From NCBI GenBank assembly GCA_016188475.1, contig JACPHT010000008.1, forward strand, positions 34,489-98,488: a stretch of DNA of 64,000 bases, read 5' to 3'. This DNA comes from Candidatus Uhrbacteria bacterium. GTDB taxonomy: Bacteria; Patescibacteriota; Patescibacteriia; UBA9934; GWF2-40-263. The number at the start of each line of letters is the position of its first letter. The stretch's first letter is position 1. A program made the translations under genes and the position numbers. The notes beneath the pieces are model-generated. The model did not search any database, was not told where the DNA came from, and saw only the letters and a list, made by a program, of their open reading frames with translations. This document shows positions 146 to 60,376 of the stretch, piece after piece.

Positions 146-1279
146 TCATGTTTTCGGCGCCCCAATATCAGCGACGTTTACAACAGCTTGGATGCCGCTG
201 TTACGATCATTGAGCAGATTCGCGCTCTTCAATCGTTGTTCGATCACGAGTCGAGGTGACTCTGCATCCCCACCAGGGTAACGCGCAATAATGCGCGCGC
301 CAATCGCGAGTGCCATTGGTTTGCCGATTGAAACGTCTTCTGCAGAACGAAGTGTGCGACGCGGAGAAGGTCCACCCTGATCCCATGCCTGTTCGGTCGC
401 AAGAGTACGAATCTCGTTTGCGACTTGCACTATGTGAATCGCTTCAGTCTCGCTGATCTTTGTCTTACCAACAAGCCATGGAATTTCCCATTCCGGAGGC
501 GGATATGTGAACTCGTATTCTTCAACTCGATCGCCCATTGCAGAATCAAGCGACTGATTTCCGATGTATCCCGGTCCTACCGGATTGTCAGTCAGAATGA
601 AAATGAATCCTTTCAGACCGTCAATCACGATTGTTCCATCGGTTGTTGTGAACGAGTACTGACCGGTATGATCGAACAATGGATGGAACGGCCCCATGCT
701 GTGACCCATGCGCGAAAACTCATCCAAGCACACAATTGCTTTTGGCCACTGTTTGCTTGAGCGATGTTGTTCGATGAACAACATGAGGTCGCTAGGAACC
801 CACTTTGTCGAACCGTTTTCCGCTGACTCGGCCCCGAACAGATCCTTTGGTTTGAAAATTCCTGTTCCATCAACTTTGATGAACGGCACATCGCCGAGCA
901 CTTTCGCAAGAATCTGTGCGAACGTTGTTTTGCCAGAGCCTTTTGGACCGACAAGTCGAATGCTTCGACCAAAATGAATGTCAGCTTCGATAAGCACGAG
1001 AGTTTCCGGACGAATCCAGAAATCCGCGCCAAGACCTTTGCCATCAATCGAGATGATTTGCCGTTCAAGATGAACAACAACATGAGTTGGACAACGTGCA
1101 GGACCTTTCACTTCAATAAGGCTTGCCGCGAAACGCGCGTTTGCGCAGATTCGATCTGCGAACGATTCAAGATTTCTCACTTCGACTTTTCCCGCGCTCT
1201 TACCGCTTGCGAGAGTTGGTGTGACTGTTCCGTCTTGATCTACGAAAACGACTTCGTATTCTGTCCCGATTGTTGTCAT
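146..1279 (-). CDS. AAA+ ATPase, MoxR/AAA_5 (McrB/CbbQ-like) family with ~110-aa N-terminal extension
   Basis: Walker A LVGPKGSGKTT and Walker B IVCLDEF. C-terminal AAA-lid-like region. GC-rich codon usage unlike host genes. Same strand as and downstream of the retron-type RT. Confidence 0.6.
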   Translation of the reverse strand: MTTIGTEYEVVFVDQDGTVTPTLASGKSAGKVEVRNLESFADRICANARFAASLIEVKGPARCPTHVVVHLERQIISIDGKGLGADFWIRPETLVLIEADIHFGRSIRLVGPKGSGKTTFAQILAKVLGDVPFIKVDGTGIFKPKDLFGAESAENGSTKWVPSDLMLFIEQHRSSKQWPKAIVCLDEFSRMGHSMGPFHPLFDHTGQYSFTTTDGTIVIDGLKGFIFILTDNPVGPGYIGNQSLDSAMGDRVEEYEFTYPPPEWEIPWLVGKTKISETEAIHIVQVANEIRTLATEQAWDQGGPSPRRTLRSAEDVSIGKPMALAIGARIIARYPGGDAESPRLVIEQRLKSANLLNDRNSGIQAVVNVADIGAPKT

Positions 1280-1337
1280 GTTTCTGCCTTTCTAAACAGA
1301 TTTGAATGAACATCTCCTCACATCAAAATATTACACA

Positions 1338-1419
1338 TTGTCATTGCGAGCGACCAACGAGAGCGAAGCAATCTCTTCAAAAAAGAGATCTCTTCGTCGT
1401 CCGACTCCTCGCAATGACA
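1338..1419. repeat. Hairpin element with 12-bp inverted arms ttgtcattgcgag / ctcgcaatgaca and an internal gagatctct palindrome. A related copy lies at 25226-25294.
   Basis: Seen directly. The second copy has arms ttgtcatctcga / tcgagatgacaa and an internal gagagatctctc. Confidence 0.6.
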
Positions 1420-1581
1420 CAAGTAAAACCCTGGTGTAAAAAGCGGTGCCGACTCATAACGAATAGGCACCGCAGTAAAGATCAGCGCAATGGAAGGCGG
1501 CCACGATTACGGTCTCTGACGTAATCGTGGTTGACCCCGGAGCCAAGGGATCCGGGGTCAAAAGCGCGGGAGTATCCCACG

Positions 1582-2002
1582 CTCCCAACTCTCAAGTGCG
1601 TGTTGCACGCGCTCTTGACGAGTCAAGAACCATGGAAGGACGCACGGCTTTGAGGACAGGTCTTGCGAAGCGTCCGCAAAGTCGGCGCGCTGGGACGTAC
1701 ACGAAGTGGCCGTCCCAGTGCGAGTCCGAATGTGCGTCTGTCTTCAAACTCTCAAGCGCGTGTAACACGCGCTCTGATTAGAGTTTGTCTCCTACTCTTT
1801 CGAGTAGGATTAGGTTCAAGTTCAGCACAGAAACAGCACAATGGATAGCGGCCGAGTGACGCTGGACGCGAGTCCTCGAGTGGACAGTGTCACACGGTTG
1901 GACAATGGCGCCATAGCGAAGCGGTGCGCCAGCAGTCCAAAGCGAGAGAAAATCCCTCGTTCCAAACTCTCAAACGCGTGTTGCACGCGTTCTTGACGAG
2001 TC
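1582..2002. repeat. Three direct copies of a 43-bp unit, each itself an imperfect palindrome, at 1582-1624, 1742-1784 and 1960-2002.
   Basis: Unit: caaactctcaa-gcgcgtgt(t/a)(g/a)cacgcg-(c/t)tcttgac/tgagtc. Copies 1 and 3 differ at 2-3 positions. Spacers are ~117 and ~175 bp. Confidence 0.85.
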
Positions 2003-2010
2003 TTGATTGA

Positions 2011-3270
2011 TTATTCCGTTTCCTTAACGAACGAATACGCATGACCTTGACTTATGTCACGAGTTCCAATTCGGAACTGTGTTTTTGCTTTGATGTACAA
2101 CTCGCGGATCGAGCTCGGAAGCTTCTGGTCGTACACCATACTAACGAATCCAACTATCCCGACTAGCAAGCGATGTTCGCGCGTTGTCAAAGGCCACTCG
2201 CGAGCATAAAACTTGTCTGGTGAAAGGTTCGAGTCAAGACTGATTCCTCTTTTCCTGAATGCTACGACATCCTTTTCCATCTGTGCTTTAACAGCCTTGA
2301 GAGCTTCTTCATCACCAGATTGACGCTTGTCTGCAACCTCCAAGAGATTGTGCAGAATCGCGCGGAACTTATTCAACCGCGGTCGCGGAATCGTCAGCCG
2401 GCCGTCCTGATTCGGGATGATTCCCGTAACTTCAGGATACTTCGTTGTCCGTTCTTCGTCACCTTCAGCGCCATCACCAAAGTAAGAAACCTTCGTGCCC
2501 TGAATGGTCCAACCATCAGACCTCACAGCCTGACGAATTTTCTGACGAAGCTTTTTTGGTATCACTTCATCGCTTGAAGAGATTGTGAGATCGTCAACAA
2601 ACCGAGTGTACTTGTAAACTACTCCTTCAGTCGCAGAAGCTGATCGAAGAAGTTGCGAGATGTTTCGATCGACTTGTCCCAGCAGAACATTGAGCACTGC
2701 TGGAGAAGTTGGAAATCCCTGCGGAAGAACATCGTCAACGATGAGCAGATCAACGAAAGTCTCTGCCAGTCGTTTTCCATCCTGTTCTGGAAGACCAGTC
2801 ACAACAGTGATGTAACCAGTGAACGTTGGTCCGAAAATCGCGGAACATCGCTTGCGATTCACTGTCGGAAACGCGTCCTTGAGATCAAGAAGATAAAACG
2901 CTTTCCCGCCCACATGCGCGCGAGCGTTTGTCACGATACTCGTTCCAGGATGTGCCCCATGAACAGCCAAGTGAACCGGAATCCCTTGAATGAACTGCGT
3001 CAAAAGCGCGCGAAGAACTTTCTTGAGCGGATCTGACGGAGCGTGAATCGTCCTGTGTCCCTTTTTCTTGGGAATCTTGTGAATCGTCCACGCATTGCCA
3101 GATGCCCACAAAGCTGTTGTGGCTCTCCATTCTGCTGGATCGATTTTTAGGATTTGACACAAGACTTCTTCAAGTCGTGCGTCAAGAAGAAAAGAAATTG
3201 GTAACCTGCTTTGTTCTGCCATTGTCTCCCCCGTCTGTTTCAGACAGTTGAAGTAATTCCAACGAACCAA
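2011..3270 (-). CDS. Reverse transcriptase, retron-type. Likely true start is the M of MAEQSRLP at about 3222.
   Basis: Motif 1-2 KKGHRTIHAPSDPLKKV. NAxxH box (TNARAH) before YLLDLKDAFPTV. Motif 4 LPQGFPTSP. Motif 5 YTRFVDDLTIS (YxDD). VTG motif (YPEVTGIIP) about 65 aa after YxDD. Block-by-block similarity to my recollection of Ec86 RT. GC-rich. Confidence 0.8.
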   Translation of the reverse strand: MVRWNYFNCLKQTGETMAEQSRLPISFLLDARLEEVLCQILKIDPAEWRATTALWASGNAWTIHKIPKKKGHRTIHAPSDPLKKVLRALLTQFIQGIPVHLAVHGAHPGTSIVTNARAHVGGKAFYLLDLKDAFPTVNRKRCSAIFGPTFTGYITVVTGLPEQDGKRLAETFVDLLIVDDVLPQGFPTSPAVLNVLLGQVDRNISQLLRSASATEGVVYKYTRFVDDLTISSSDEVIPKKLRQKIRQAVRSDGWTIQGTKVSYFGDGAEGDEERTTKYPEVTGIIPNQDGRLTIPRPRLNKFRAILHNLLEVADKRQSGDEEALKAVKAQMEKDVVAFRKRGISLDSNLSPDKFYAREWPLTTREHRLLVGIVGFVSMVYDQKLPSSIRELYIKAKTQFRIGTRDISQGHAYSFVKETE

Positions 3271-3936: not shown

Positions 3937-4010
3937 TCCCGGGTCGTCTAATGGCAGGACATGGGCCTTTGAAGCCCAGTATCGTGGTTCGAATCCACGC
4001 CTGGGAACCA
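3937..4010 (+). tRNA. tRNA-Gln (anticodon TTG)
   Basis: Cloverleaf folded by eye. Acceptor tcccggg/cctggga. Anticodon stem tgggc/gccca with loop ctttgaa. T-loop ttcgaat. 3' CCA encoded. Confidence 0.8.
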
Positions 4011-5882: not shown

Positions 5883-5956
5883 GCGGGATTAGTACAGTGG
5901 TAGTATGCTAGCTTCCCAAGCTAGAGACGCGGGTCCAATTCCCGTATCCCGCTCCA
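5883..5956 (+). tRNA. tRNA-Gly (anticodon CCC)
   Basis: Acceptor gcgggat/atcccgc perfect. Anticodon loop ttcccaa. CCA encoded. Confidence 0.8.
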
Positions 5957-5966
5957 AAAAAATTTT

Positions 5967-6042
5967 GCCGAAGTAGCTCAGTTGGTAGAGCAATACTTTC
6001 GTAAAGTAAAGGTCGCGGGTTCGATTCCCGCCTTCGGCTCCA
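5967..6042 (+). tRNA. tRNA-Thr (anticodon CGT)
   Basis: Acceptor gccgaag/cttcggc. D-arm gctcagttggtagagc. Anticodon loop ttcgtaa. T-loop ttcgatt. CCA encoded. Confidence 0.8.
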
Positions 6043-6078
6043 AAAAAAACACTCACTTTACGTGAGTGTTTTTTTATT
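6043..6078. terminator. Bidirectional intrinsic terminator: aaaaaaaac-actcac-tttacg-tgagtg-ttttttt.
   Basis: 6-bp stem (8 with the flanking a/t base pairs), flanked by A-run and T-run, between the tRNA cluster and the stop of the 6074 minus-strand gene. Confidence 0.7.
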
Positions 6079-6985
6079 TCACGAAATATCTCACTTTCGC
6101 GTTTGATAAATACTCCGAGACCAAATTCTCAAGTGTTATTTTTGGAATCATCACAGTCATCAAGTGAATTTGTGAATCTTCAGCGGCTTCAATTCGATCT
6201 GTAATTGTTGCAATTACATAATTTTGCTCAAGTTCAATAATTTCTGACAAAACTCCAACCGGTAAATCTTTCACAACTTTCCATTCTTCAGGAAGGTCAG
6301 CAACATTTTGATATCCAAGATCATTTTCAAAAGACGTTGCGGATACTGTAAGAAAATCCTCACCAGCTTTCAAACGGCCATAAACCTGCTCAACTTCTTC
6401 ACGCACCGGCGCTTGTAATGTTTCGTCTTTAGAAACAAAATCGCTCATCTGTAAAGCAAGCACGATTGATTCAACAATTCTTTTTTTGAAATCAGTTTTA
6501 CTCCAACCAAATGTTTCAGAAAGTTCTTTTGTAAAATCGTCTTCACTGGACTGTCCAGCAACAACATCTTGATAATACTTCTCAACCGAAGCCTGATCCA
6601 ATTTCACTCCATACCGCGATGCGAGTTTGCGAATTACCGTTTTATTGACCAAAGCCTCTAAAATCGTTTGTTGTAAAACATCATTGGACGGAGGTTCAGT
6701 GGTTCCAGAATTTTTAAGATATTGCGCCAGCGCTTCACGCTCAAGAATATAAGTTCTCATCGTAATTATAGATCCGTCAACCATTACTGCTGGAAATGGA
6801 ATAATAAACGAAACTGTTTTTACAAAAGGATTCGTTGTTGGCAGACGATAAACAAGCACTGATAAAATAACTAATAGACCAAGCAAAGAAAACAAAACAA
6901 AAAAAGGCCTGAGCGATTTTGTGTCTTTGAGTGAAATGGACGAAATTTGCTCCGAAGGTTCAGCTTCTGATTTTTCAATTTTCAT
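6074..6985 (-). CDS. Membrane-anchored hypothetical protein, possibly a SurA/PpiD-N-like chaperone domain
   Basis: One N-terminal TM. Extracytoplasmic helical domain. Weak resemblance only. Confidence 0.3.
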   Translation of the reverse strand: MKIEKSEAEPSEQISSISLKDTKSLRPFFVLFSLLGLLVILSVLVYRLPTTNPFVKTVSFIIPFPAVMVDGSIITMRTYILEREALAQYLKNSGTTEPPSNDVLQQTILEALVNKTVIRKLASRYGVKLDQASVEKYYQDVVAGQSSEDDFTKELSETFGWSKTDFKKRIVESIVLALQMSDFVSKDETLQAPVREEVEQVYGRLKAGEDFLTVSATSFENDLGYQNVADLPEEWKVVKDLPVGVLSEIIELEQNYVIATITDRIEAAEDSQIHLMTVMIPKITLENLVSEYLSNAKVRYFVK

Positions 6986-7445
6986 ATTTACTTATTGAAT
7001 CAAATGTTTTTTTATCAAAGAAGTAATACCACCATTTTGTTGAATTCGCAATTCGCGTTAATTCAGATTGATCATCAAGAACCAAATTCAACGGATCATT
7101 CTCTTCCTCCCCCACTCGCCCCTTATCTCCCTCTCCCCCTTCTTGTATCACCACAACTTCCTCTCCTGGCTTCTTCATTCCCAATTTCAAACGAGCTTCG
7201 CGTTCAATAAACGACTCTGTTTGAATTGCTGTTTGAAGTTCGCTAAGCGCAATGTTACGCGCGGCAAGTGTGTCAGCTTGAGATTGTAATTTATTTATTT
7301 CAGACTGTATCTCGCGAGAACGAAAAAATTCCCTTCCAAAAGTTAATCCAAGAAAAACGATTATCACAACATTAACGACAACTAAAAAGCGCCATCGAAT
7401 CAGTCTTGAAATAAATGATTGTCTATATGACGTCATTTGTAGCAA
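6975..7445 (-). CDS. Septum formation initiator FtsB/DivIC-like
   Basis: N-terminal TM, coiled coil, then ARLKLGMKKPGEEVVVI, which resembles the FtsB signature. Confidence 0.55.
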   Translation of the reverse strand: MLQMTSYRQSFISRLIRWRFLVVVNVVIIVFLGLTFGREFFRSREIQSEINKLQSQADTLAARNIALSELQTAIQTESFIEREARLKLGMKKPGEEVVVIQEGGEGDKGRVGEEENDPLNLVLDDQSELTRIANSTKWWYYFFDKKTFDSISKYEN

Positions 7446-7935
7446 CTGCGTTATGTTCTTCTCTAAGATCGTTGATTAAATTATGAACTCGCGATGGACG
7501 AAATACGCGAGCAAACTCGATGTCCGCACTTGACCCGTTCAACAAAAGTCGAATAGTTCCATAGCGAAAAACCGTTGCGAAAAAACCTTTCACTCGGTAG
7601 CTCGCTTCGTCTATTTGACGATATGTCGCTTCTGTAACAACACGATCAAAAAAACCGCGGCGATCAATATCAACGATTCTCTTATCTGTGATAATGAGTT
7701 GGGTTCCGGACCAACGTGTATACTCGCGCAAAAATAAAACCATTCCTGAAATTAGTAACCCGAAAAAAACAATCACGCCGCCAACACCTTCGCGAAATAA
7801 TGGAAACAGAAAAAAGAACGGCACAAGAATCCAAAAAATAAACAAAAGAAAACGCGGCAAGCTCGGAACAAGAGATGTCCGAACTGTTTCGAGAATTTCT
7901 TCGTGAGGTTTTAATTCAAACGCGCGAGATTTCAT
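7423..7935 (-). CDS. Membrane protein with bacterial PH (YdbT-like) domain. The ORF track extends to 8058.
   Basis: Two TM followed by LIITDKRIVDIDRRGFF...TIRL, a bPH_2-like pattern. Confidence 0.45.
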   Translation of the reverse strand: MKSRAFELKPHEEILETVRTSLVPSLPRFLLFIFWILVPFFFLFPLFREGVGGVIVFFGLLISGMVLFLREYTRWSGTQLIITDKRIVDIDRRGFFDRVVTEATYRQIDEASYRVKGFFATVFRYGTIRLLLNGSSADIEFARVFRPSRVHNLINDLREEHNAVATNDVI

Positions 7936-7990
7936 AGTAGAACAAGGACGGAAAGGTCTGAAAAGTCGTAAAAGTCGGAAAGGACTAAAA

Positions 7991-9298
7991 TTACAGACTA
8001 TGCAATGCTTTGCGAGCGGCAACCCGGTCATCCCATGGAATTTTTTTTCCTCCAGCAACGGCCATAACAGGCTCGTTTCCTTTTCCTGTTAACAAAACCA
8101 AATCTCCTGGTTGCGCGACTGCGATCGCTTTGTTTATAGCTTCCTCTCGATCAAGGATGCGAAATAAATTTATATTTTCTTGTTTTCCAACTTTAACTGC
8201 GGCATCTGCAATGTTGTTTATTATTTCCATTGGATCATCATCATAAGGATCCTCATTTGTAACAATCATGATATCGGCATTTGTAGCTGACATTTGTCCC
8301 AAAATTGCTCTTCGCGCAACATCTCGCCCACCGCCAGTCGAACCAAGAACATGGATAAAACGATTATAGCCAATAAGCTTCAAAGCCTCATAGCTCGCTG
8401 AAAGAGAGGCTGGTTCAGGCGCGTAATCAACAATTACAGAAAACGGTTGACCTTCATCAATAACTTCCAAACGTCCTGGAATTGGTTCAAGGCGCTCGAC
8501 AGCATCTTGAATCTGTTCAAGTGAAAGACCAAGCACTCGACATGTTGTTATTGCCGCGAGAACATTTTCAAAATAGAATCGTCCGATTGGTTTGAAATAA
8601 AATTTCAAACCGTGAATTTCAAACTTCGTTCCCGTTTTTTCAAACAGAACATGTTCAGCCCAAATAGTTCTCACTGGTTTTTTCTCACCTATCAGACCTT
8701 TCTGACCTTTCAGACCTTCTTCTTCATATCCAAATCCCCAAGACTCTCCTGATTGGAAAGATAAAAAATATTCCGCGTGCTCGTCCATGAGATTTACAAC
8801 CTTCGCGCGTTCAACATTTTCAAACAATTTTCCTTTTGCTTGTTTGTATGCCTCAAAACCTCCATGCGATTCAAGATGTTCTGGAGTTAAATTTGTAAAT
8901 ACAGCAACGTCATATCTAATTCCAACATGACGATATTGAGCGATACCTTGTGAAGAAGTCTCAATAACAGCATATCGACATCCGGCTTTTACCATCTGCC
9001 GCAACATTTTTTGAGTTTGAAAACGCCCAAGCATTGTCATTTTTTTGTCATTGACCCATTCGCGCTCCGCTATCTTAAATCCAACTGTCGTGGTCCATCC
9101 AACACGCTCTCCCAAGTGCTCCAAAATCCGACCAATAAATTGAACTGTCGTTGATTTTCCATTTGTTCCAGTTACACCAATTACAGTCAGTTGCTTTGAT
9201 GGATGCCTATAAATAAAAGTTGAGATGTGCGCAAACACAAAATGATAAGCACTGATCAGTGGTTTTGGAACGAATCTGCGAACAACTGATTTGATCAT
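7991..9298 (-). CDS. Mur ligase family protein (MurE/MurF/MurT-like, no N-terminal Rossmann domain)
   Basis: P-loop VIGVTGTNGKSTT. Mur ligase central and C-terminal domains. Lies downstream of murD. Confidence 0.6.
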   Translation of the reverse strand: MIKSVVRRFVPKPLISAYHFVFAHISTFIYRHPSKQLTVIGVTGTNGKSTTVQFIGRILEHLGERVGWTTTVGFKIAEREWVNDKKMTMLGRFQTQKMLRQMVKAGCRYAVIETSSQGIAQYRHVGIRYDVAVFTNLTPEHLESHGGFEAYKQAKGKLFENVERAKVVNLMDEHAEYFLSFQSGESWGFGYEEEGLKGQKGLIGEKKPVRTIWAEHVLFEKTGTKFEIHGLKFYFKPIGRFYFENVLAAITTCRVLGLSLEQIQDAVERLEPIPGRLEVIDEGQPFSVIVDYAPEPASLSASYEALKLIGYNRFIHVLGSTGGGRDVARRAILGQMSATNADIMIVTNEDPYDDDPMEIINNIADAAVKVGKQENINLFRILDREEAINKAIAVAQPGDLVLLTGKGNEPVMAVAGGKKIPWDDRVAARKALHSL

Positions 9299-10761
9299 AC
9301 AGTTTTTAGAGCCTCCACCACTGCGTTAAACTGATCACCGCGATCAAACTCGTTTTTGAAAATACCAAAACTCGCGGTCCCTGGTGAAAGCAAAATCACG
9401 TCTCCAAGTTTTGCTTCACTACGAGCAGAATCAATCGCTGATTGCATCGAGTTTACTCTTGTCATTGGAATTCCTTCTCCGATTGTTTGTGCGAATTGCT
9501 CAAGCGCTGTTCCTTCAAACAGCACGACTTGTTTACATTGCTCACGAATTTCTTTTGCAAGATCGCTCATCGCCAACCCTTTTGACGAGCCACCCGCGAT
9601 CAAAATTATATTTCCACCATTTCCAAAACGCTTAAGCGCCGCGATGGTTCCGTCAGGTGAAGTCGCAGTTGTGTCATTGACAAACATCACTCCTTCAATT
9701 TCAGCGATTATTTGTTGACGTCCTGGAAGTCCTGCAAAAGTTTTCAAAGTTTGATGAATGTTTTCGTCTGTCACACCAGAAAAATGCGCGACCAAAGAAG
9801 CACTAAGCGCGTTCATCATATTATGATCTCCCAAAATTTTAATATCGTGCACGTGCGCGAACTCGACTTGCTGTCCGTTTAATTTTCGAATCAAAGAATC
9901 GCCTTCACGAAACACGCCTGTCTTTTCAGAAACCAACGGCTTTGATGAAAACCAATAAACGCGTTTTGATGAAACACGAGACGCAATTCCGTCCATAAGT
10001 TCCTGATCGGCATTCAGAATAGCGATTTGATCTGGTTTCTGTTCTTTGAAAATAAGTTCCTTTGCTGAAAGATAATGTTCGAAAGAATCGTAACGGTCCA
10101 AATGATCTTGATACGCATTTGTCAAAAGCGCGATCTGCGGACCAATTCCAAGCCCTTCAATACTTTCCAAAAGCCATGATGATAATTCAAGCACGATTGG
10201 AACCGGCGCTTTTTCCTCAAGCAACCAATCAAGATCTTCAAGTGGTGAACGAGTTATGTTTCCTGCAACAACTGTTTTTGGATGAATTGTTTTTAACATT
10301 TCACCCAAGAGAGCGGTTGTTGTGGATTTTCCTCTTGTACCTGTCACACTAAAAATTGGAAACGGACAATATCTAAAAAATAAAGATATGTCGCTTTCAA
10401 CATGAATGTTGTTTTCTTTAGCAAGTTGAACAAACTTTGACTCGCGAGCAACACCCGGATTTTGAACAACCAAATCAACATTTGTGAAATCATCTTCGTG
10501 ATGTTCTCCCAAAACAAAAATCGGAGAATAAATTGAACGATCTTTGTATTCTTTTTTGTATTGACTATACCACTTTGTAATTTCTTCAACAGACTCTTTG
10601 AGTTCAGCTTCAGTTTTAAGATCCGTAATCACAATTTGAGCGCCGTGACGCATGAGCCACTTCGCGGCGCCGACTCCGCTTCCTTGTTTGAATCGACCTA
10701 AACCCATCACCGTTACCATGGCATCTTGAAAATTGTAGATTGAGGACAAGTCAAGGGACAT
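9295..10761 (-). CDS. murD: UDP-N-acetylmuramoylalanine--D-glutamate ligase
   Basis: N-terminal Rossmann VTVMGLGRFKQGSGVG. P-loop SVTGTRGKSTTT. Mur ligase C-terminal domain. Confidence 0.8.
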   Translation of the reverse strand: MSLDLSSIYNFQDAMVTVMGLGRFKQGSGVGAAKWLMRHGAQIVITDLKTEAELKESVEEITKWYSQYKKEYKDRSIYSPIFVLGEHHEDDFTNVDLVVQNPGVARESKFVQLAKENNIHVESDISLFFRYCPFPIFSVTGTRGKSTTTALLGEMLKTIHPKTVVAGNITRSPLEDLDWLLEEKAPVPIVLELSSWLLESIEGLGIGPQIALLTNAYQDHLDRYDSFEHYLSAKELIFKEQKPDQIAILNADQELMDGIASRVSSKRVYWFSSKPLVSEKTGVFREGDSLIRKLNGQQVEFAHVHDIKILGDHNMMNALSASLVAHFSGVTDENIHQTLKTFAGLPGRQQIIAEIEGVMFVNDTTATSPDGTIAALKRFGNGGNIILIAGGSSKGLAMSDLAKEIREQCKQVVLFEGTALEQFAQTIGEGIPMTRVNSMQSAIDSARSEAKLGDVILLSPGTASFGIFKNEFDRGDQFNAVVEALKTV

Positions 10762-12215: not shown

Positions 12216-14654
12216 ATGCGTAAAAAAAATACCAATGGGTTTGCACATATTGGCTCGAATACGATCTGCAAGAATTTTTTACAACATTCAAAAGACGCGG
12301 TATTCATAGTCAACAAAAAAAATAAAGTCGAATACGCGAGTCCGTCTTGCAAAAAAATCTTTGGGTATTCCGCGAAAGAATTTATTAACGTACCGTGTTT
12401 GACAGAAAAAAAAATTCTTCATCCTTCGTGTAAAATACGTTTTGAAAAATTTTGGAAGGAATACGCGAAAAATAAAACTTTTCCTGTTAAAACTTCGGAA
12501 TGGAGATGGGTAAAAAAAGATGGAAAAGAAATATACACTAAAAATAGTTTTGTAAATTTATCAGAACACGGAAAAAGTGTTGGATTTTTAACAATCGCAC
12601 AAGACATAACTAAAGAAAAAGATAATGTTAAATTAACAGAACAACTTTCTTCTCTTCTAGATTCAATCAGAAAAATAGATCAACTAATTGTAAAAGAAAA
12701 AAATGAAGATATACTTCTGCAAAAAGCATGTGAAATTTTACGAGAAACAAGAGGATATAATTTTGTTTGGATCGGAATCGTCAATGAATATGAAAGAACT
12801 ATTACTCCTGTAGCTAGTTCTGGCCCTAAAATACTTCGTTCAAAACTCAAAAAATTTATTTGGACAAAACAAATGGAATCTTATTGCCATATTGTTCAAG
12901 TAATAAAGAATCGAAAAACCATATCATTAAATAAACTCACCTCTCCTTTTTTAGACATCAATAAATTATGCTCGTGGCATAAAGGTATAATTCAATATGG
13001 CGATATATCCACGATTTTCGTTCCATTAATTAGAGCTAAATTGGTATCAGCGATTATTGTATTAAGTTCTCCCGAGCCTAAAATTTTTAATCTTCATGAA
13101 ATAAAATTGATAAAAGAGCTGGCTAATAACATAGCGTTTGCTCTTCAGTCAATTAAAATAGAAAAAACAGCAAAAGAAAATGAAACGCTTTACACAGCAC
13201 TAGTTGAGCTTTCGCCGGACATTGTGGCAGTGCACAGTCAAGGAAAAATTGTGTTGGTAAACAAAGCCGCTGTAAAATCATTCGGCGCGAAAAACAAAAA
13301 AGAATTGATTGGCAAGCCTGTGATAAATTTTGTACATCCAGAAAGTCGGGCCGATGTCATAAAAAGAATTAAAAAAATGACGACGAAACACAGACAAGCT
13401 CCTCCGATTGAAGAAAGATTCCTTCGCCTTAATGGCACACCGTTTGATGTTGAGACATCGGCTGTACCAATAAAATATAAAGGGAAACCAGCGATTCAAG
13501 TTGTTGCGCATGATATTGGCGCGCGTAAAAAATCTGCGATTGCTTTGGCTCAGGAATCTTCGCTGGCGCAAAACATAATTGATCTGAATCCATACGCTGT
13601 TGCTCTTGGAAGATCAGACGGATATATCTTTAGAATCAACAAAGCATTCGTGCAACTTTTCGGTTCAACTCCGCCGCCAGATTACAACATATTCAAAGAT
13701 CCAATGTTGCTAAAATCCGACTATAAAAAATTATTCAAAAAAATGTTTGAGGGTGAGATAGTCGAGTTTCCAAAAATTTGGTACAACGCTCATAGACTAA
13801 ACCCGCGATTGCCTGACAAAGAAATTTGTATTCGCTCTGTATTTTTTCCAATCAAAGGAGTCAATAAAAAAGTTGAGTATGTGGTAGGAATGCACGAAAA
13901 CATCACGCAAGCGGCGCAAATAGACAAAGCAAAAAGCGAGTTTGTATCCCTGGCTTCGCATCAGCTTAAGACACCGTTGACTGGAATTAAATGGTTCACT
14001 GAACTATTGATGGATCACACAGAACAACAATTAACAAAGAGACAGTCTGAACTCGCAAAAGAAATTTCCATAGCCAATCAACGCATGATAACTCTTGTTA
14101 ATGCGCTGTTGAATGTTTCAAGGATTGAAATGGGGACAATGAAAATAGAGCCAAAAAAAATCAACGCGGAAGAACTAGCAAACGAGTGTGTAAGATTACT
14201 GATGCCTAGAGTCAAAAAAAATAATCAATATCTGACGAAAAATTTTCACCTGACACAAAAATTCGTCATCAACGATCGCAACTTATTGGCGATGATCATT
14301 CAAAATATTTTAGCAAACGCGATTCAATACACAAAATCAAACGGGCAAATTAAGTTTAGCCTTGAGAACAAACAGGATAATCTTTTGCTAACTATAAGCG
14401 ATACTGGAATAGGAATTCCACTCAGCGCTCAAGAAAAAATTTTCACAAAACTTTATAGGGCCGACAACGCGAAAATCTTTTCACCTAACGGAAACGGACT
14501 TGGGTTATATATCGTGAAGTCTGTGCTTGATTACATGAACGGAAAAATTTGGTTTACCTCAACAGTTGGAAAAGGAACAACGTTTTATGTAAGTATCCCA
14601 ATGAAAGGAATCACGAGAAAAAAAGGAACAAAAAATTTGATAATGAATGAATAA
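12216..14654 (+). CDS. PAS-domain sensor histidine kinase (812 aa), AT-richer than neighbours, opposite strand to flanking genes
   Basis: H-box SLASHQLKTPLTGI. N, G1 and G2 boxes (DTGIGIP, GNGLGLYIVK, GKGTTF). Several PAS-like blocks. Confidence 0.8.
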   Translation: MRKKNTNGFAHIGSNTICKNFLQHSKDAVFIVNKKNKVEYASPSCKKIFGYSAKEFINVPCLTEKKILHPSCKIRFEKFWKEYAKNKTFPVKTSEWRWVKKDGKEIYTKNSFVNLSEHGKSVGFLTIAQDITKEKDNVKLTEQLSSLLDSIRKIDQLIVKEKNEDILLQKACEILRETRGYNFVWIGIVNEYERTITPVASSGPKILRSKLKKFIWTKQMESYCHIVQVIKNRKTISLNKLTSPFLDINKLCSWHKGIIQYGDISTIFVPLIRAKLVSAIIVLSSPEPKIFNLHEIKLIKELANNIAFALQSIKIEKTAKENETLYTALVELSPDIVAVHSQGKIVLVNKAAVKSFGAKNKKELIGKPVINFVHPESRADVIKRIKKMTTKHRQAPPIEERFLRLNGTPFDVETSAVPIKYKGKPAIQVVAHDIGARKKSAIALAQESSLAQNIIDLNPYAVALGRSDGYIFRINKAFVQLFGSTPPPDYNIFKDPMLLKSDYKKLFKKMFEGEIVEFPKIWYNAHRLNPRLPDKEICIRSVFFPIKGVNKKVEYVVGMHENITQAAQIDKAKSEFVSLASHQLKTPLTGIKWFTELLMDHTEQQLTKRQSELAKEISIANQRMITLVNALLNVSRIEMGTMKIEPKKINAEELANECVRLLMPRVKKNNQYLTKNFHLTQKFVINDRNLLAMIIQNILANAIQYTKSNGQIKFSLENKQDNLLLTISDTGIGIPLSAQEKIFTKLYRADNAKIFSPNGNGLGLYIVKSVLDYMNGKIWFTSTVGKGTTFYVSIPMKGITRKKGTKNLIMNE

Positions 14655-15347: not shown

Positions 15348-15490
15348 ATCTTAAATTATGTTGTCTTTAACGGACATATCATAAGCGACAAGAGTTAATT
15401 GAGCAAACGTGAAAAATTACATTCTTGGCATTTTCTTGCCAAACAATAAAATTCCTGATATATTTTCGTCGCTTATTTTAAATGGATAAT

Positions 15491-15653
15491 GCGCTGGTAG
15501 CTCAGCGGTAGAGCAAGAGCCTTTTAAGCTCGTGGCCGTGGGTTCGATGCGCGAGCGAGCGAGGGGAGAGACCAAGCCAAATGCTTGGACTATCCCGAGC
15601 GAACGAACGCAATATGGCCGAGCCGTTTTAGGCGAGAGCCATATCCCCACCCA
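15491..15653 (+). pseudogene. Disrupted tRNA-Lys copy. Positions 1-58 (15491-15548) are followed by a ~95-bp GC-rich insertion, then an 11-nt T-arm/acceptor fragment atccccaccca (15643-15653). The 3' acceptor strand is missing.
   Basis: Positions 1-58 are identical to the intact tRNA-Lys 137 bp downstream. Seen directly. Confidence 0.6.
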
Positions 15654-15684
15654 TGTTGGGGATCGTCAGTACAACTTAACTTAT

Positions 15685-15759
15685 GCGCTGGTAGCTCAGC
15701 GGTAGAGCAAGAGCCTTTTAAGCTCGTGGCCGTGGGTTCGATCCCCACCCAGCGCACCA
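15685..15759 (+). tRNA. tRNA-Lys (anticodon TTT)
   Basis: Acceptor gcgctgg/ccagcgc perfect. Anticodon loop cttttaa. T-loop ttcgatc. CCA encoded. Followed by a terminator hairpin aaaacactcaa-cttg-tttgagtgtttt. Confidence 0.85.
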
Positions 15760-15965
15760 AGATAAAACACTCAACTTGTTTGAGTGTTTTATCTTTTATA
15801 GCGCAATCTATTCTTCCTCAATTGACAACACCTCTGTCACATGATACCTTTTTACATCACATTCTCTTCAGTGATTTGGTCGGAAAAATAATTTCCTACT
15901 AAATCGTTGCCGAGATGGTAACCGCTTTGGGATTGTCCCAAGTGCTCCTGTGATAGGAGGTTCTC

Positions 15966-16511
15966 ATGTTCGGAAAAGTTAGGTCAGAGCGTTCGTTCTC
16001 GCTCTGTCTCGCAGAAGAACTTCTGCGAGCAGAACTCAGGAAACACTTCGGCGACGAAGTCAAGATCTTTCAGATGAACATGGTGGCGACAAAACCAATC
16101 AAGCAATTTCCACAACCAGTGACGTTGACCGACCTTGAAATAAACCAGTCTTGGTCTAAGCACTGGGAGCGATACATAACAATGGTCGGACGTTTCGGTC
16201 CTGTTGGACGACTCTATCCTGACAATCCACCAGAGGATTTACGCGGTCGTATATTCCTAATCGAAGCCAAATGCAGACTGTTCTCTATTGAGTCAGGCTG
16301 TGTCATGTGGAGACCGCACTTCATGCGATATACCATCACAACAGATGAAGGTTTCAATCACGCTCAAGTCGTTCGGCTCTATGAAGACGGGAGAGTTTAC
16401 GGAGGAAGGCTGACAATGCTTGTTCCTGATAACCCGTGTCATGTCATGGTGGCGAGCCAAGGTCCTCGTGGATACGTTCCTGACGACTGGACGCCTCGTA
16501 TCAAGAACTAA
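15966..16511 (+). CDS. Hypothetical protein (181 aa), GC-rich islet next to tRNA-Lys
   Basis: SD-like ggagg 8 nt upstream. GC-rich codon usage. No motif recognised. Confidence 0.5.
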   Translation: MFGKVRSERSFSLCLAEELLRAELRKHFGDEVKIFQMNMVATKPIKQFPQPVTLTDLEINQSWSKHWERYITMVGRFGPVGRLYPDNPPEDLRGRIFLIEAKCRLFSIESGCVMWRPHFMRYTITTDEGFNHAQVVRLYEDGRVYGGRLTMLVPDNPCHVMVASQGPRGYVPDDWTPRIKN

Positions 16512-16615
16512 TCTGGGTCTTGCAAATTCATGCAAGACTCTTTTTTATTATCAACTCTTGCCATGCTTTTGTTTGCCTTGTATCATGCCATTACTAACAA
16601 AATAATTTTATTTCT

Positions 16616-16750
16616 ATGGACGGAACAGGAATTTGCACAGCCTGTGGAGTAAGCACGGGCGATGACGAAAAGGAAACATGTCCGGATTGTGAAGAAGCGG
16701 CTCCTGCAGAAGGAACTGACGAAGGGCCAACACTAGAACCAGAAGAATAA
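16616..16750 (+). CDS. Small acidic Cys-rich peptide (44 aa, CxxC...CxxC), not in the ORF track
   Basis: ATG at 16616. MDGTGICTACGVSTGDDEKETCPDCEEAAPAEGTDEGPTLEPEE*. Immediately followed by a strong terminator. Confidence 0.3.
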   Translation: MDGTGICTACGVSTGDDEKETCPDCEEAAPAEGTDEGPTLEPEE

Positions 16751-16756
16751 AAAAAT

Positions 16757-16790
16757 ATGCCCAACTCTGGGCGTATTTTTTTATTGAAAC
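16757..16790. terminator. Intrinsic terminator tatgccca-actc-tgggcgta + T7, bidirectional with the DoxX gene
   Basis: 8-bp stem with T-run, seen directly. Confidence 0.65.
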
Positions 16791-17164
16791 CAATCTTTTC
16801 CTTGCTTTGGCCAACCAACAAGAACCAGCAAAGCAAGCGGAGCTCCCCAATTCGCGAATCGTTCAATAAAATCCCAACCAGATTCTCCAACGATCGGACG
16901 AATAAGCGCTGTCCAAAATCCCCAAAACGCCATCCACAAAAGCGCTAGACGAACCGGTCGAAGTAAAATCACAACAGCAAGCACGATGTCTAAAACTCCA
17001 ATCAATATCAATAACTGCGTTGCAAGAGTGACGTCTGAAATTCCAAACGTTGAAAACCATCCGATCCAAGCCGGCTTTCCAGAAACTGCGAGCGCGCCGT
17101 GCCCGATAAATTCTCCGGCAACAGCGATTCGCAAAATCCACTCAATTTTTTTGTGGGAAGACAT
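16781..17164 (-). CDS. DoxX-family membrane protein
   Basis: Four TM. W/G-rich pattern typical of DoxX/DoxD. Confidence 0.5.
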   Translation of the reverse strand: MSSHKKIEWILRIAVAGEFIGHGALAVSGKPAWIGWFSTFGISDVTLATQLLILIGVLDIVLAVVILLRPVRLALLWMAFWGFWTALIRPIVGESGWDFIERFANWGAPLALLVLVGWPKQGKDWFQ

Positions 17165-21948: not shown

Positions 21949-22440
21949 TTAGGGGCAACCTACTGCCTGACGGCCCTCATAGGAGAGAGCCTTGCAATCA
22001 ATCTGCTGTGAGTGTCCGCTTTGAGCGGACGTGGAAGAATTAGGTTGTGAAATTTGCACAGGCGTTCTTCCGCTATGCTGTGCTTGAGCGGCTACGGAGG
22101 CGTGGCTCGCATCGAACCTTGGAAACCACATCAGGATCAAAAGAACCAGTGCCGCTCCAGTTATGGCCCACGGTTGCCAACCGTGCGCGAACCGACGAAA
22201 CGCCATTGTGACTGCCATTACAATTCCGAATGTCGCGAAGATCCCGGTGAGCGCGCCATGGTCGGCGCCGAAGTGCCCTTTGATCGGACCATTGATCATG
22301 GTCCAACAGAGCGAAATGACGAACAGCACGCTGATCACCTTCCAGTGAATTCTCCATCCGCTTCGGAAGATCCAGTGTCCAAGAGCGAACAGACCAACCG
22401 ACGCAAACGCAAGCACAACTGTATCCAGTACCGCGTTCAT
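21949..22440 (-). CDS. GC-rich 4-TM membrane protein, hypothetical
   Basis: Hydrophobic profile. GC-rich unlike neighbours. Confidence 0.45.
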   Translation of the reverse strand: MNAVLDTVVLAFASVGLFALGHWIFRSGWRIHWKVISVLFVISLCWTMINGPIKGHFGADHGALTGIFATFGIVMAVTMAFRRFAHGWQPWAITGAALVLLILMWFPRFDASHASVAAQAQHSGRTPVQISQPNSSTSAQSGHSQQIDCKALSYEGRQAVGCP

Positions 22441-26418: not shown

Positions 26419-27300
26419 ATGGCTCTGGTGAAGGAAGCGGAGGTCAAGAAAATCTTGACCGCATACAACGGTTCTGTGGACGAAGGATCGCAACTCAACG
26501 TCGACGAGGTCTGTGCGAAGTTGGCCAAGGCAGGCGGAGGTCTCTCGGCGGCGGCTAAGGAGATGTCCTACGAGGATATCGAAGGTGCCGGGATTCCGAA
26601 GGCGGTTGCGCGCGCGATCAGCAAGGTCTGGCGCGGCGACGGCGAGAAGCCGGCAAAGCTCGGGCCGGAAGTCCAGATCGGCGGAGTCGAAGGAACGTTC
26701 GAGGCCCTGGCATTCGCCATGGGCAACATAGGTGCTTTCGGCGACAAGCCGCTCCTCAAGGTCTACGAACCTCTCGGTCGCGACGACGTCACTGGCGAGC
26801 TTCGCAAGCGCTCAGGTGACAAACCGTTCATCGCGTTCAGTGACAAGCAGACGCTGACGGTCGATGTGGAAGCATCGTATGGGAACCTCCAGCTACTCAA
26901 GCAGGGCGTCGAAATCGGCACAAACACAGTGATCAACGGGAAGCTGACAGAGCTCTTCAGGGCTGGAGAGCTTCCTGATCTCGCACTTCCGATCTGCCCG
27001 GTTCACGGGTGCCATCTCATCGGGGATGGTGAGTTCTGCAAGGAATGCAACTTCAGTTGGTCCGGAGTTTCGACCGAGGTTCGCGAGCTTGCGTGGTGTC
27101 ACGTCCAGAACGTGCTCGCGGAAGTTCCTGGCTCGCAGGACGCGAGACTCAAGCAGATCCTCGCCGCTCTCAGCGACGCAAAGGACCAGTACTGGTCCTC
27201 GGCAACGCTCGAGCTCGAGAAACTCAAGGCAACTGGCCAGCCCATCGTGCTGGTCAAGCCGGTCAAGCGTCCCGGACGCTCGACTCCGTCCCGCCGCTAG
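26419..27300 (+). CDS. Hypothetical protein with HhH-like motif (DIEGAGIPKAVARAIS) and C4 zinc ribbon (CPVHGC...CKEC)
   Basis: Motifs seen by eye. GC-rich. First gene of the island. Confidence 0.5.
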   Translation: MALVKEAEVKKILTAYNGSVDEGSQLNVDEVCAKLAKAGGGLSAAAKEMSYEDIEGAGIPKAVARAISKVWRGDGEKPAKLGPEVQIGGVEGTFEALAFAMGNIGAFGDKPLLKVYEPLGRDDVTGELRKRSGDKPFIAFSDKQTLTVDVEASYGNLQLLKQGVEIGTNTVINGKLTELFRAGELPDLALPICPVHGCHLIGDGEFCKECNFSWSGVSTEVRELAWCHVQNVLAEVPGSQDARLKQILAALSDAKDQYWSSATLELEKLKATGQPIVLVKPVKRPGRSTPSRR

Positions 27301-59586: not shown

Positions 59587-59662
59587 GCCGTCGTAGCTCA
59601 GCTGGTAGAGCACATCCATGGTAAGGATGGGGTCTCGGGTTCAATTCCCGACGACGGCTCCA
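59587..59662 (+). tRNA. tRNA-Thr (anticodon GGT)
   Basis: Acceptor gccgtcg/cgacggc perfect. Anticodon loop atggtaa. CCA encoded. Confidence 0.8.
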
Positions 59663-59740
59663 GAACACTTCATAAATACGAAGTGTTTTATTGTTGACAA
59701 ATGGCTAAAGCCAAAGTTTTATGTTACACTAACATTAATT

Positions 59741-60376
59741 ATGAGTTATCCAAAAGCAATTAAAAAATCAGAACAACAAAAAGTGATCAATCTATACAGT
59801 ATTAAACTTTGGAGTGCTAAAAAAATTGCAGAACATTTTGGCATAGGCCTTCAAACAGTATATAGATTTCTACGAGACAAAAAAGTCTCGAGACGAGGAC
59901 CAAGAGAAGCGTCCGAAGCTTTCTTTAAACACAAACCGGAATCATTCAAAATAAAACATAGATTGAATAAAAAAGAAGAGGAATTAAAAATTGCTGGAAT
60001 AATGCTTTATTGGGCGGAGGGTTCAAAAGGATATTCTGTGGTGGATTTTGTGAATAGTGATCCTTTCATGTGTCTCATTTTTATGAGATTTTTGCGTGAA
60101 GTGTGTGGAATTGACGAACGGAAACTAAGAGGGTATATTTACTGCCATCCAGGACAAGATTTGAAAAAAATAACTAACTTTTGGAGTGGAAGCTTAAAAA
60201 TTCCAGTTAAACGATTTTCAAAGCCTTATATTAGGAAACCTGTTGAAGGCAAAACGAACAAACGACCTGCTCGCATGCAATATGGTGTCGTTCATATTCG
60301 TTACGGAGACAAAAAGTTACTTAATCAAATTTTAGTTTGGATTCAGGAATACTTGAAATGTTTCGTGGGTCGGTAG
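59741..60376 (+). CDS. HTH + LAGLIDADG-like (single-motif) endonuclease-like protein; 3' end overlaps tRNA-Tyr by 10 nt
   Basis: HTH LWSAKKIAEHFGIGLQTVYRFL. LYWAEGSKG...FVNSDPFMCLIFMRFLREVCG parallels my recollection of I-CreI LAGFVDGDGS...FQVTQKTQRRWFLDKLVDEIG. Confidence 0.35.
   Translation: MSYPKAIKKSEQQKVINLYSIKLWSAKKIAEHFGIGLQTVYRFLRDKKVSRRGPREASEAFFKHKPESFKIKHRLNKKEEELKIAGIMLYWAEGSKGYSVVDFVNSDPFMCLIFMRFLREVCGIDERKLRGYIYCHPGQDLKKITNFWSGSLKIPVKRFSKPYIRKPVEGKTNKRPARMQYGVVHIRYGDKKLLNQILVWIQEYLKCFVGR

Follow-up and report, generated by a model that had tools for sequence, protein, structure and literature searches.

We analysed the tRNA-Lys locus in a 64-kb stretch of DNA (contig JACPHT010000008.1; "the window" below means this whole stretch) from a metagenome-assembled genome of Candidatus Uhrbacteria, a bacterium of the Candidate Phyla Radiation (CPR). 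At this locus an intact tRNA-Lys gene is preceded by a truncated copy of itself, and it is followed by a small gene of an uncharacterised family, which we call ORF181, with a predicted folded leader RNA, and by a gene for a 44-aa peptide. All of these lie on the forward strand, and positions are those of the window.

Structure of the tRNA-Lys locus

Repeat finding and pairwise alignment identified an exact 60-nt direct repeat, in which 15489–15548 is identical to 15683–15742. The repeat consists of "AT" followed by positions 1–58 of tRNA-Lys(UUU), which means tRNA positions −2 to 58. Repeat copy 2 contains the first 58 nt of the intact tRNA-Lys(UUU) gene (15685–15759), and this gene, which has an encoded CCA, was called by ARAGORN, scored 70.7 bits in Rfam and is the functional one. 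Repeat copy 1 (15489–15548) is a pseudo-tRNA fragment that ends in the T-loop after U59, and the search against the 4227 families of Rfam 15 gave it 28.9 bits with the T-arm deleted, where the tRNA threshold is 29 bits. ARAGORN called a 71-nt tRNA-Lys at 15492–15562 by making a T-arm and an acceptor out of spacer letters, and this call is a false positive, because the Rfam score is below the threshold and the T-arm is missing. The locus is an annotation trap in this respect: ARAGORN reports two tRNA-Lys genes here, and one of them is real. A consensus scan found a promoter-like site (TTGCCA-17-TATATT, 15436–15464) upstream of copy 1 only, and the terminator of the tRNA unit, an inverted repeat that forms a hairpin with a 16-bp perfect stem and then a T run (15759–15795), follows copy 2.

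The two copies are separated by an orphan spacer of 134 nt (55% GC). It begins with a filler of 94 nt (15549–15642, 60% GC), which folds into two predicted hairpins and is matchless in the collections searched. The filler is followed by T-arm debris (15643–15665), in which ATCCCCACCCA at 15643–15653 equals tRNA positions 58–68 in the forward direction, and TGGGGATCG at 15657–15665, 3 nt after the forward piece, is the reverse complement of tRNA positions 56–64. The forward and inverted pieces pair as a perfect 7-bp hairpin (ATCCCCA/TGGGGAT). The match quality of the forward 11-mer was reached in 19 of 2000 shuffles (about 1%), the inverted 9-mer alone was not significant (149 of 2000), and the remaining spacer did not resemble the tRNA significantly (539 of 2000). 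The last 17 nt (15666–15682) lead into repeat copy 2, and the promoter and terminator scan was empty there, as the consensus scan was for both signals over the spacer in general. All three tRNA-derived pieces break in the T-loop at positions 56–59, the junctions share AT, and the tRNA sequence resumes after the 94-nt filler with a 2-nt AT overlap. These results bear out what a preliminary description of the locus had read from the letters, namely an exact copy of tRNA-Lys 1–58 at 15491–15548 (the alignment extends the repeat by 2 nt, AT, on the 5′ side), about 95 bp of GC-rich sequence after it, an 11-nt piece of the T-arm and acceptor region, and an intact tRNA-Lys gene downstream.

The spacer occurs once in the window, and sensitive blastn did not find it in relatives or in the fetched loci. 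A 21-mer from the spacer had no match in the metagenome contig collection or in the genome contig collection, of which this genome is not a part. Exact patterns of 21–31 nt, taken from the spacer, from hairpin 3 and from the 5′ block of the tRNA, were absent from the viral contigs searched, and blastn with the spacer as query returned nothing from phages, plasmids or E. coli genomes. Rfam at E ≤ 10, run with 3 kb and also with the spacer by itself, gave no match, introns of groups I and II included. The reading frames of the spacer are spurious, with no real open reading frame (ORF) among the 134 nt, and the spurious 57-aa ORF, used as a query in Logan, was not on record. No terminal inverted repeats could be read from the spacer sequence, and partial copies of the other tRNAs of the window were not found. 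The idea that the spacer is itself a degenerate tRNA was rejected, because the likeness of its hairpins to D and anticodon arms was not significant in the shuffle test.

The structure was also checked in the Logan assemblies (k = 31) of runs SRR12113419 and SRR12113385. The unitigs break at window positions 15518 and 15713, exactly k − 1 = 30 nt inside the repeat; both runs show the 5′ break, and one run shows the 3′ break. Breaks due merely to a tRNA that several genomes have in common would be expected at 15520 and 15730, and breaks at these positions were not seen. The raw reads therefore contain both repeat junctions. An assembly artefact or collapsed repeat would mean that two populations had been mis-joined, or that the 194-bp unit exists in tandem copies or on a separate molecule. 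The source is a metagenome-assembled genome, the tRNA sequence is common to related genomes in such samples (contig L004 likewise begins inside the tRNA), and the assembly graph of flank, repeat, spacer, repeat and flank holds a cycle, which makes the copy number indeterminate. But the Logan breaks match the repeat boundaries rather than those of a shared tRNA, and the 60-nt repeat and the 194-nt unit should be short enough for ordinary reads or read pairs, judging from typical read lengths, so we give an artefact very little credence.

The closest available relative is a related Candidatus Uhrbacteria genome, represented by 88-kb contigs (L003 from ENA and L011 from JGI), in which the gene order is translin, P-type ATPase, tRNA-Lys, ORF180, 44-aa gene, murG, ftsW and mraY. 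Its tRNA-Lys gene is single and undisrupted, and it is identical to the tRNA of the window at 75 of 75 positions. The flank 5′ of copy 1 is homologous to the promoter region of the relative, the promoter-like site being near-identical to the region 5′ of the single tRNA-Lys in L003, and what follows copy 2 is homologous to the 3′ flank of the relative, including its terminator, whose hairpin has the same architecture. Because the relative has one identical tRNA-Lys with homologous flanks and no insert, the 194-bp insertion is specific to this lineage, within an otherwise conserved locus. The ancestral arrangement, kept in the relative, is promoter, tRNA-Lys, terminator, leader and ORF181, 44-aa gene and murG, and the site at 15436–15464 would be the ancestral tRNA-Lys promoter, a function that we infer from its sequence and place.

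Several simpler readings of the truncated copy can be set aside at this point. The preliminary description had allowed that both copies might be a tandem duplication present undisrupted in relatives, and such a simple shared duplication is rejected, because the spacer occurs once and L003/L011 carry one tRNA-Lys; the disrupted copy survives this comparison. A decayed tandem duplicate, another of the explanations offered there, is contradicted by the breakpoints, at which identity falls sharply from 100% to nothing. A split or spliced tRNA, likewise offered there, fails on several counts: beyond the 94-nt insert the tRNA sequence goes no further than position 68, and the fragments could not yield a tRNA; there is no 3′ acceptor strand and no CCA, no intron model matched, and an intact tRNA-Lys begins 31 nt after the debris piece 58–68.

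It is likely that the truncated copy and its spacer are a real, lineage-specific and functionally silent scar. In its present working, the truncated copy would be a dead fragment. Transcription would start at the ancestral promoter (15436–15464) and run through fragment and spacer, because the promoter-like site lies solely 5′ of copy 1 and the spacer has no terminator. RNase P, which removes the 5′ leader of tRNA precursors, would then cleave at 15685 and free a normal tRNA-Lys from copy 2, and fragment and spacer together would be a selectively silent, 194-nt structured extension of the pre-tRNA leader.

Origin of the insertion

We favour, with some hesitation, an origin by strand switching (template switching) at the T-arm hairpin, because the tRNA-derived pieces break in the T-arm loop, the forward and inverted pieces form a hairpin, and the junctions share AT. 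The origin would be a single complex illegitimate event, in which replication or repair switched strands at this hairpin and produced the forward and inverted T-arm pieces, filler DNA was captured, and synthesis was primed anew at the gene's 5′ end. Forward and inverted hairpin pieces side by side are the expected product of a quasipalindrome template-switch mutation. The locus resembles this class of rearrangements in the clustering of its breakpoints in the hairpin-forming T-arm, in the adjacent forward and inverted copies of the same 9–11 nt, in the short AT overlaps at the junctions and in the product, which is a local duplication. It differs in that the template of the filler was not found here, and one genome does not allow the event to be reconstructed step by step. 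For the whole account, which joins the silent scar, its present working and the strand-switch origin, we put the chances at about even.

Some points weigh against this account. Neither the window, which is the part of this genome that the search covered, nor the relatives nor any collection searched contained a template for the 94-nt filler. The repeat begins 2 nt before tRNA +1 and ends in the T-loop, which makes it a mirror image of the identity block of an attachment site, a geometry not to be expected from a strand switch at random. Selection for an intact downstream gene needs a start at or before +1 and no more. Besides, the read-through transcription and the RNase P processing are steps that we infer, and the copy number of the 194-bp unit is not readable from the assemblies.

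The geometry of the repeat leads to site-specific integration, which we regard as a close second to strand switching, though by itself a rather unlikely origin. An element whose attachment site was the 5′ part of tRNA-Lys (−2 to the T-loop) would have crossed over in the T-loop and displaced the native 5′ fragment upstream, and later nearly all of the interior of the element would have been lost, with 134 nt left. The locus shares with prophages and islands integrated in tRNA genes (attL/attR) an exact direct repeat of a tRNA part, bounded on one side by the T-loop, the classical crossover sublocation, and here on the other by the gene end; an empty site exists in the related genome (L003/L011); and the DNA between the repeats looks foreign, the orphan spacer having 55–60% GC compared with 42.5% in the genome. 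Elements that target dusA replace the 5′ end of that gene. The dusA-specific integrases target the 5′ end of their gene (PMC4482086), and upstream integration with a repeat of the 5′ half of a tRNA gene is documented, though rare, in the arg2 islands of Klebsiella (bioRxiv 10.1101/2020.11.02.365908).

However, the usual geometry is not seen. Normally the repeat is made of the gene's 3′ part, from the anticodon loop or T-loop to the CCA end, with the element downstream of the restored gene, but here the 5′ part is duplicated, and upstream. The islands of the Klebsiella survey have a minimum of about 3.5 kb between repeats, with an integrase (bioRxiv 10.1101/2020.11.02.365908), whereas here the repeats enclose just 134 nt with no integrase and no gene. 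No integrase domain was detected by Pfam among the scanned window ORFs of at least 150 aa. The GCGCGAG right after the T-loop junction does not look like the T-stem half-site that a core site should have, and the tRNA block and the spacer are absent from the viral contigs searched. The T-arm debris inside the spacer is a further difference from tRNA-integrated islands, since a single integration does not predict the internal 58–68 piece and the inverted 56–64 piece. A distal partial tRNA-Lys, which the preliminary description had suggested as a mark of the far end of an integrated element, was looked for in the 64 kb, and there was none. Its integrase-mediated scar therefore stands in part: the T-loop-bounded repeat and the empty site agree with it, but integrase and cargo are missing and the geometry is not the usual one. 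If integration were the true origin, it would hint at CPR mobile elements by which a tRNA gene has its 5′ half restored, a rare geometry. The footprint of an undescribed T-loop-targeting element of this kind, or of an insertion mediated by reverse transcriptase, would be a novel but less likely reading. In our view the arrangement is an ordinary, private and most likely neutral rearrangement scar, which probably arose by strand switching or by decayed integration.

A non-autonomous mini mobile element or intron of 94 nt, flanked by AT on both sides, might have entered a tandem pair of tRNA-Lys genes at the T-loop of the first one, which later lost its 3′ end. As noted, tRNA sequence does resume directly behind these 94 nt, with AT as a 2-nt overlap; the insert has strong predicted structure; and Patescibacteria are unusually rich in tRNA introns, which are of group I and lie in the anticodon loop (PMC13011429). 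The host belongs to the same phylum, and here as there a structured RNA-like insert in a tRNA gene confuses annotation tools. But the known patescibacterial introns sit at the anticodon loop (e.g. 35/36) rather than in the T-loop, with a group I core and both exons complete, whereas this locus has a T-loop break, no core by Rfam, an incomplete 3′ exon and an insert of 94–134 nt. An archaeal parallel exists in the bulge-helix-bulge introns of the T-arm, which also interrupt the T-loop region of a tRNA gene; these need a splicing endonuclease, whereas here the host is bacterial, the tRNA piece ends at 68 and an intact gene follows. Against a mini-element there are also the lack of terminal inverted repeats, the lack of a second copy in the 64 kb or the collections searched, and the empty Rfam result. 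The relative has one gene and not a tandem pair, a downstream exon that ends at position 68 makes a functional product impossible, and three separate events would be needed, so we consider this origin improbable.

It is very unlikely that fragment and spacer form a functional RNA, either tRNA-like with an alternative acceptor (GCGCUGG with UCAGUAC, 15666–15672) or transcribed together with tRNA-Lys as its regulatory leader or as a decoy. The 194-nt stretch is more stable than its shuffles (z = −2.45), forcing the alternative acceptor helix costs 1.4 kcal/mol, and the 58-nt tRNA part is perfectly preserved; but perfect identity is equally expected from a recent event, and the alternative acceptor contains a C-A mismatch and two G-U pairs and comes without T-loop consensus and without CCA. 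Neither the relative nor the collections contain the sequence, which leaves such a function unsupported by conservation, and no Rfam family matched it.

ORF181, its leader RNA and the 44-aa gene

The tRNA scar matters little biologically, and the RNA in front of ORF181 is of greater value. This 5′ leader of about 110 nt (15857–15965) was delineated by alignments, RNAalifold, pair counts and a covariance model, and it is far better conserved across the homologue loci than the ORF181 protein. RNAalifold predicted a long helix P1 (15863–15915), a hairpin P2 of variable sequence (15923–15944) and a hairpin P3 (15945–15959) whose 3′ arm is the Shine-Dalgarno AGGAGG (15955–15960), and pair counts gave an alternative helix (15906–15911 with 15917–15922). 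The conserved linker reads GAUGGUAGCC. With 10–11 sequences, which make these statistics indicative rather than final, 13 of the 27 pairs of P1 and P3 had compensatory double changes and 92.9% of the cells were paired in the model-based alignment, a level that 0 of 500 shuffles reached and that compares with 38–49% in slid controls. In the alternative helix, formed by GGUAGC of the linker and GCUGCC, the 3′ strand of lower P1, all 60 of 60 cells were paired, and three of the pairs were compensatory. This helix excludes the lower half of P1 and is a conserved alternative structure. The covariance model gave one match per locus in each of the 11 distinct ORF181 homologue loci, always abutting the start codon, including that of the most distant homologue, which was outside the training set (55 bits), and the leader had no match among the 4227 Rfam families.

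These alignments and models indicate that the leader is a previously undescribed folded RNA in which P3 would sequester the ribosome-binding site. Together with its own promoter and this conserved leader RNA, by which the site for ribosome binding is masked, ORF181 makes up a unit complete in itself. The leader resembles riboswitches and protein-binding leaders in being a 5′ untranslated region of about 110 nt on the gene strand with several helices that carry compensatory changes, in having two mutually exclusive pairings and in placing the Shine-Dalgarno in a conserved hairpin; it differs in having no Rfam match and in having been seen with one rare protein family so far. We tentatively suggest that it belongs to a new effector-responsive RNA class, specific to this protein family of CPR and unclassified metagenome assemblies, which might be a riboswitch or else a leader that binds protein for autoregulation. 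It would toggle between full P1 and the GCUGCC/GGUAGC hairpin and so control access to the ribosome-binding site. Such a regulatory RNA, possibly with a ligand, offers a handle on a gene of unknown function in poorly understood bacteria. Two other identities were considered and rejected. A T-box is contradicted by the absence of an Rfam T-box match at E ≤ 10 and by the "UGG", which is UGA or CAG in some sequences and covaries with the alternative helix, whereas a T-box has an invariant UGGN bulge for pairing with the NCCA end of a tRNA. A leader peptide is contradicted by the short ATG frame, which is not conserved and shows frame shifts and AAG in L012.

ORF181 itself (15966–16511; NCBI protein HYV69_03030) was defined as an ORF with homologues and is followed by a terminator found by the terminator scan (16515–16540). 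One closer homologue exists, with 76% identity, in L003/L011. A word-indexed search gave 41 family members, and 67 representatives were found among 1.84 billion proteins, so the family is rare, and it occurs mostly in metagenomes and CPR assemblies. Neither Pfam nor PADLOC matched the protein, and no relative was found in viral contigs. The fold is predicted to be an N-terminal helix on a curved antiparallel sheet, NTF2/cystatin-like. The homologues are solitary genes in unrelated chromosomal contexts.

The surroundings of the homologues gave some further observations. Translation genes are often beside them: tRNA-Ser and tRNA-Pro are just upstream in L010 (9305–10549), alaS is next door in L016 (1815–4504), and tgt and glyS are downstream at the P0034 locus; in small genomes these neighbours may be a matter of chance. 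In L015, a LAGLIDADG endonuclease gene lies upstream of the homologue and an RVT_1 reverse transcriptase gene (290 aa) directly downstream (1534–2046; 5946–6818). In two very large proteins, several stretches match short segments of the ORF181 profile, 14 in P0061 (1336 aa; best 103–138) and 6 in P0077 (3175 aa; best 43–98), which suggests that beta-hairpin modules of the ORF181 fold also occur as repeats in large proteins.

The gene downstream of ORF181 encodes an acidic, zinc-ribbon-like 44-aa peptide with a CxxC...CxxC pattern (16616–16750). It has a promoter-like site at 16558–16586 and weak, sub-threshold zinc-ribbon matches in Pfam. The peptide is found at the same place in L003, L004 and L011, where it is full length and 86% identical, with the changes relative to the window mainly in the acidic tail, so this ORF is a real small gene. 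An inverted repeat at 16746–16785, also found by the terminator scan, is a bidirectional terminator for the 44-aa gene and for the convergent DoxX-like gene (16781–17164, reverse strand; Pfam DoxX match). A general link between the 44-aa gene and ORF181 was rejected, because the peptide was found in the close relative only.

The preliminary description had placed the 181-aa ORF and the CxxC...CxxC ORF, the latter with a strong terminator, in a small GC-rich islet unlike the AT-rich host genes. The ORFs and their terminators proved to be real. The compositional contrast did not hold: the genome has 42.5% GC and the window ORFs average 42.9% (sd 5.2%), so ORF181 with 48.5% and the 44-aa gene with 50.4% are about 1–1.5 sd above the mean and within the range of the window, in which ruvB and others are as rich or richer. 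An acquired islet was rejected, because L003/L011 have the two genes in unchanged order between tRNA-Lys and murG. Because they are syntenic in a relative that has no insertion and their GC content is within the window range, ORF181 and the 44-aa gene are native, conserved neighbours, which form no island and are unlinked to the tRNA event. A partial tRNA copy beside compositionally odd genes should therefore not be taken for an island boundary before relatives have been compared.

The gene content near tRNA-Lys differs between the two genomes in other places. The window has a PAS/GAF histidine kinase gene (12216–14654, 35% GC) that is absent from L003, the DoxX-like gene is also absent there, and L003 has the P-type ATPase gene (7004–9634) between translin and the tRNA. 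The tRNA-Lys neighbourhood is a site of gene turnover.

Other observations in the window

A gene for a retron-type reverse transcriptase (419 aa; Pfam RVT_1; PADLOC RT_XIII, 3e-44) is followed by one for an AAA_5 ATPase (377 aa) at 146–3270 on the reverse strand, next to tRNA-Gln (3937–4010). The pair has 48–50% GC and has the look of a defence module of the retron kind in a CPR genome. A 252-aa ORF (59618–60376, forward strand; 35.6% GC) with a resolvase-type HTH_7 domain occupies the whole gap from tRNA-Thr(GGU) to tRNA-Tyr and overlaps both gene ends; it may be what is left of a mobile-element or homing-type gene. Directly upstream of ruvB lies a 293-aa ORF (26419–27300, forward strand) with no Pfam or PADLOC match, and its 60% GC (74% at third codon positions) is by far the highest in the window. 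Another ORF, at 21949–22440, has 55% GC and no Pfam match.

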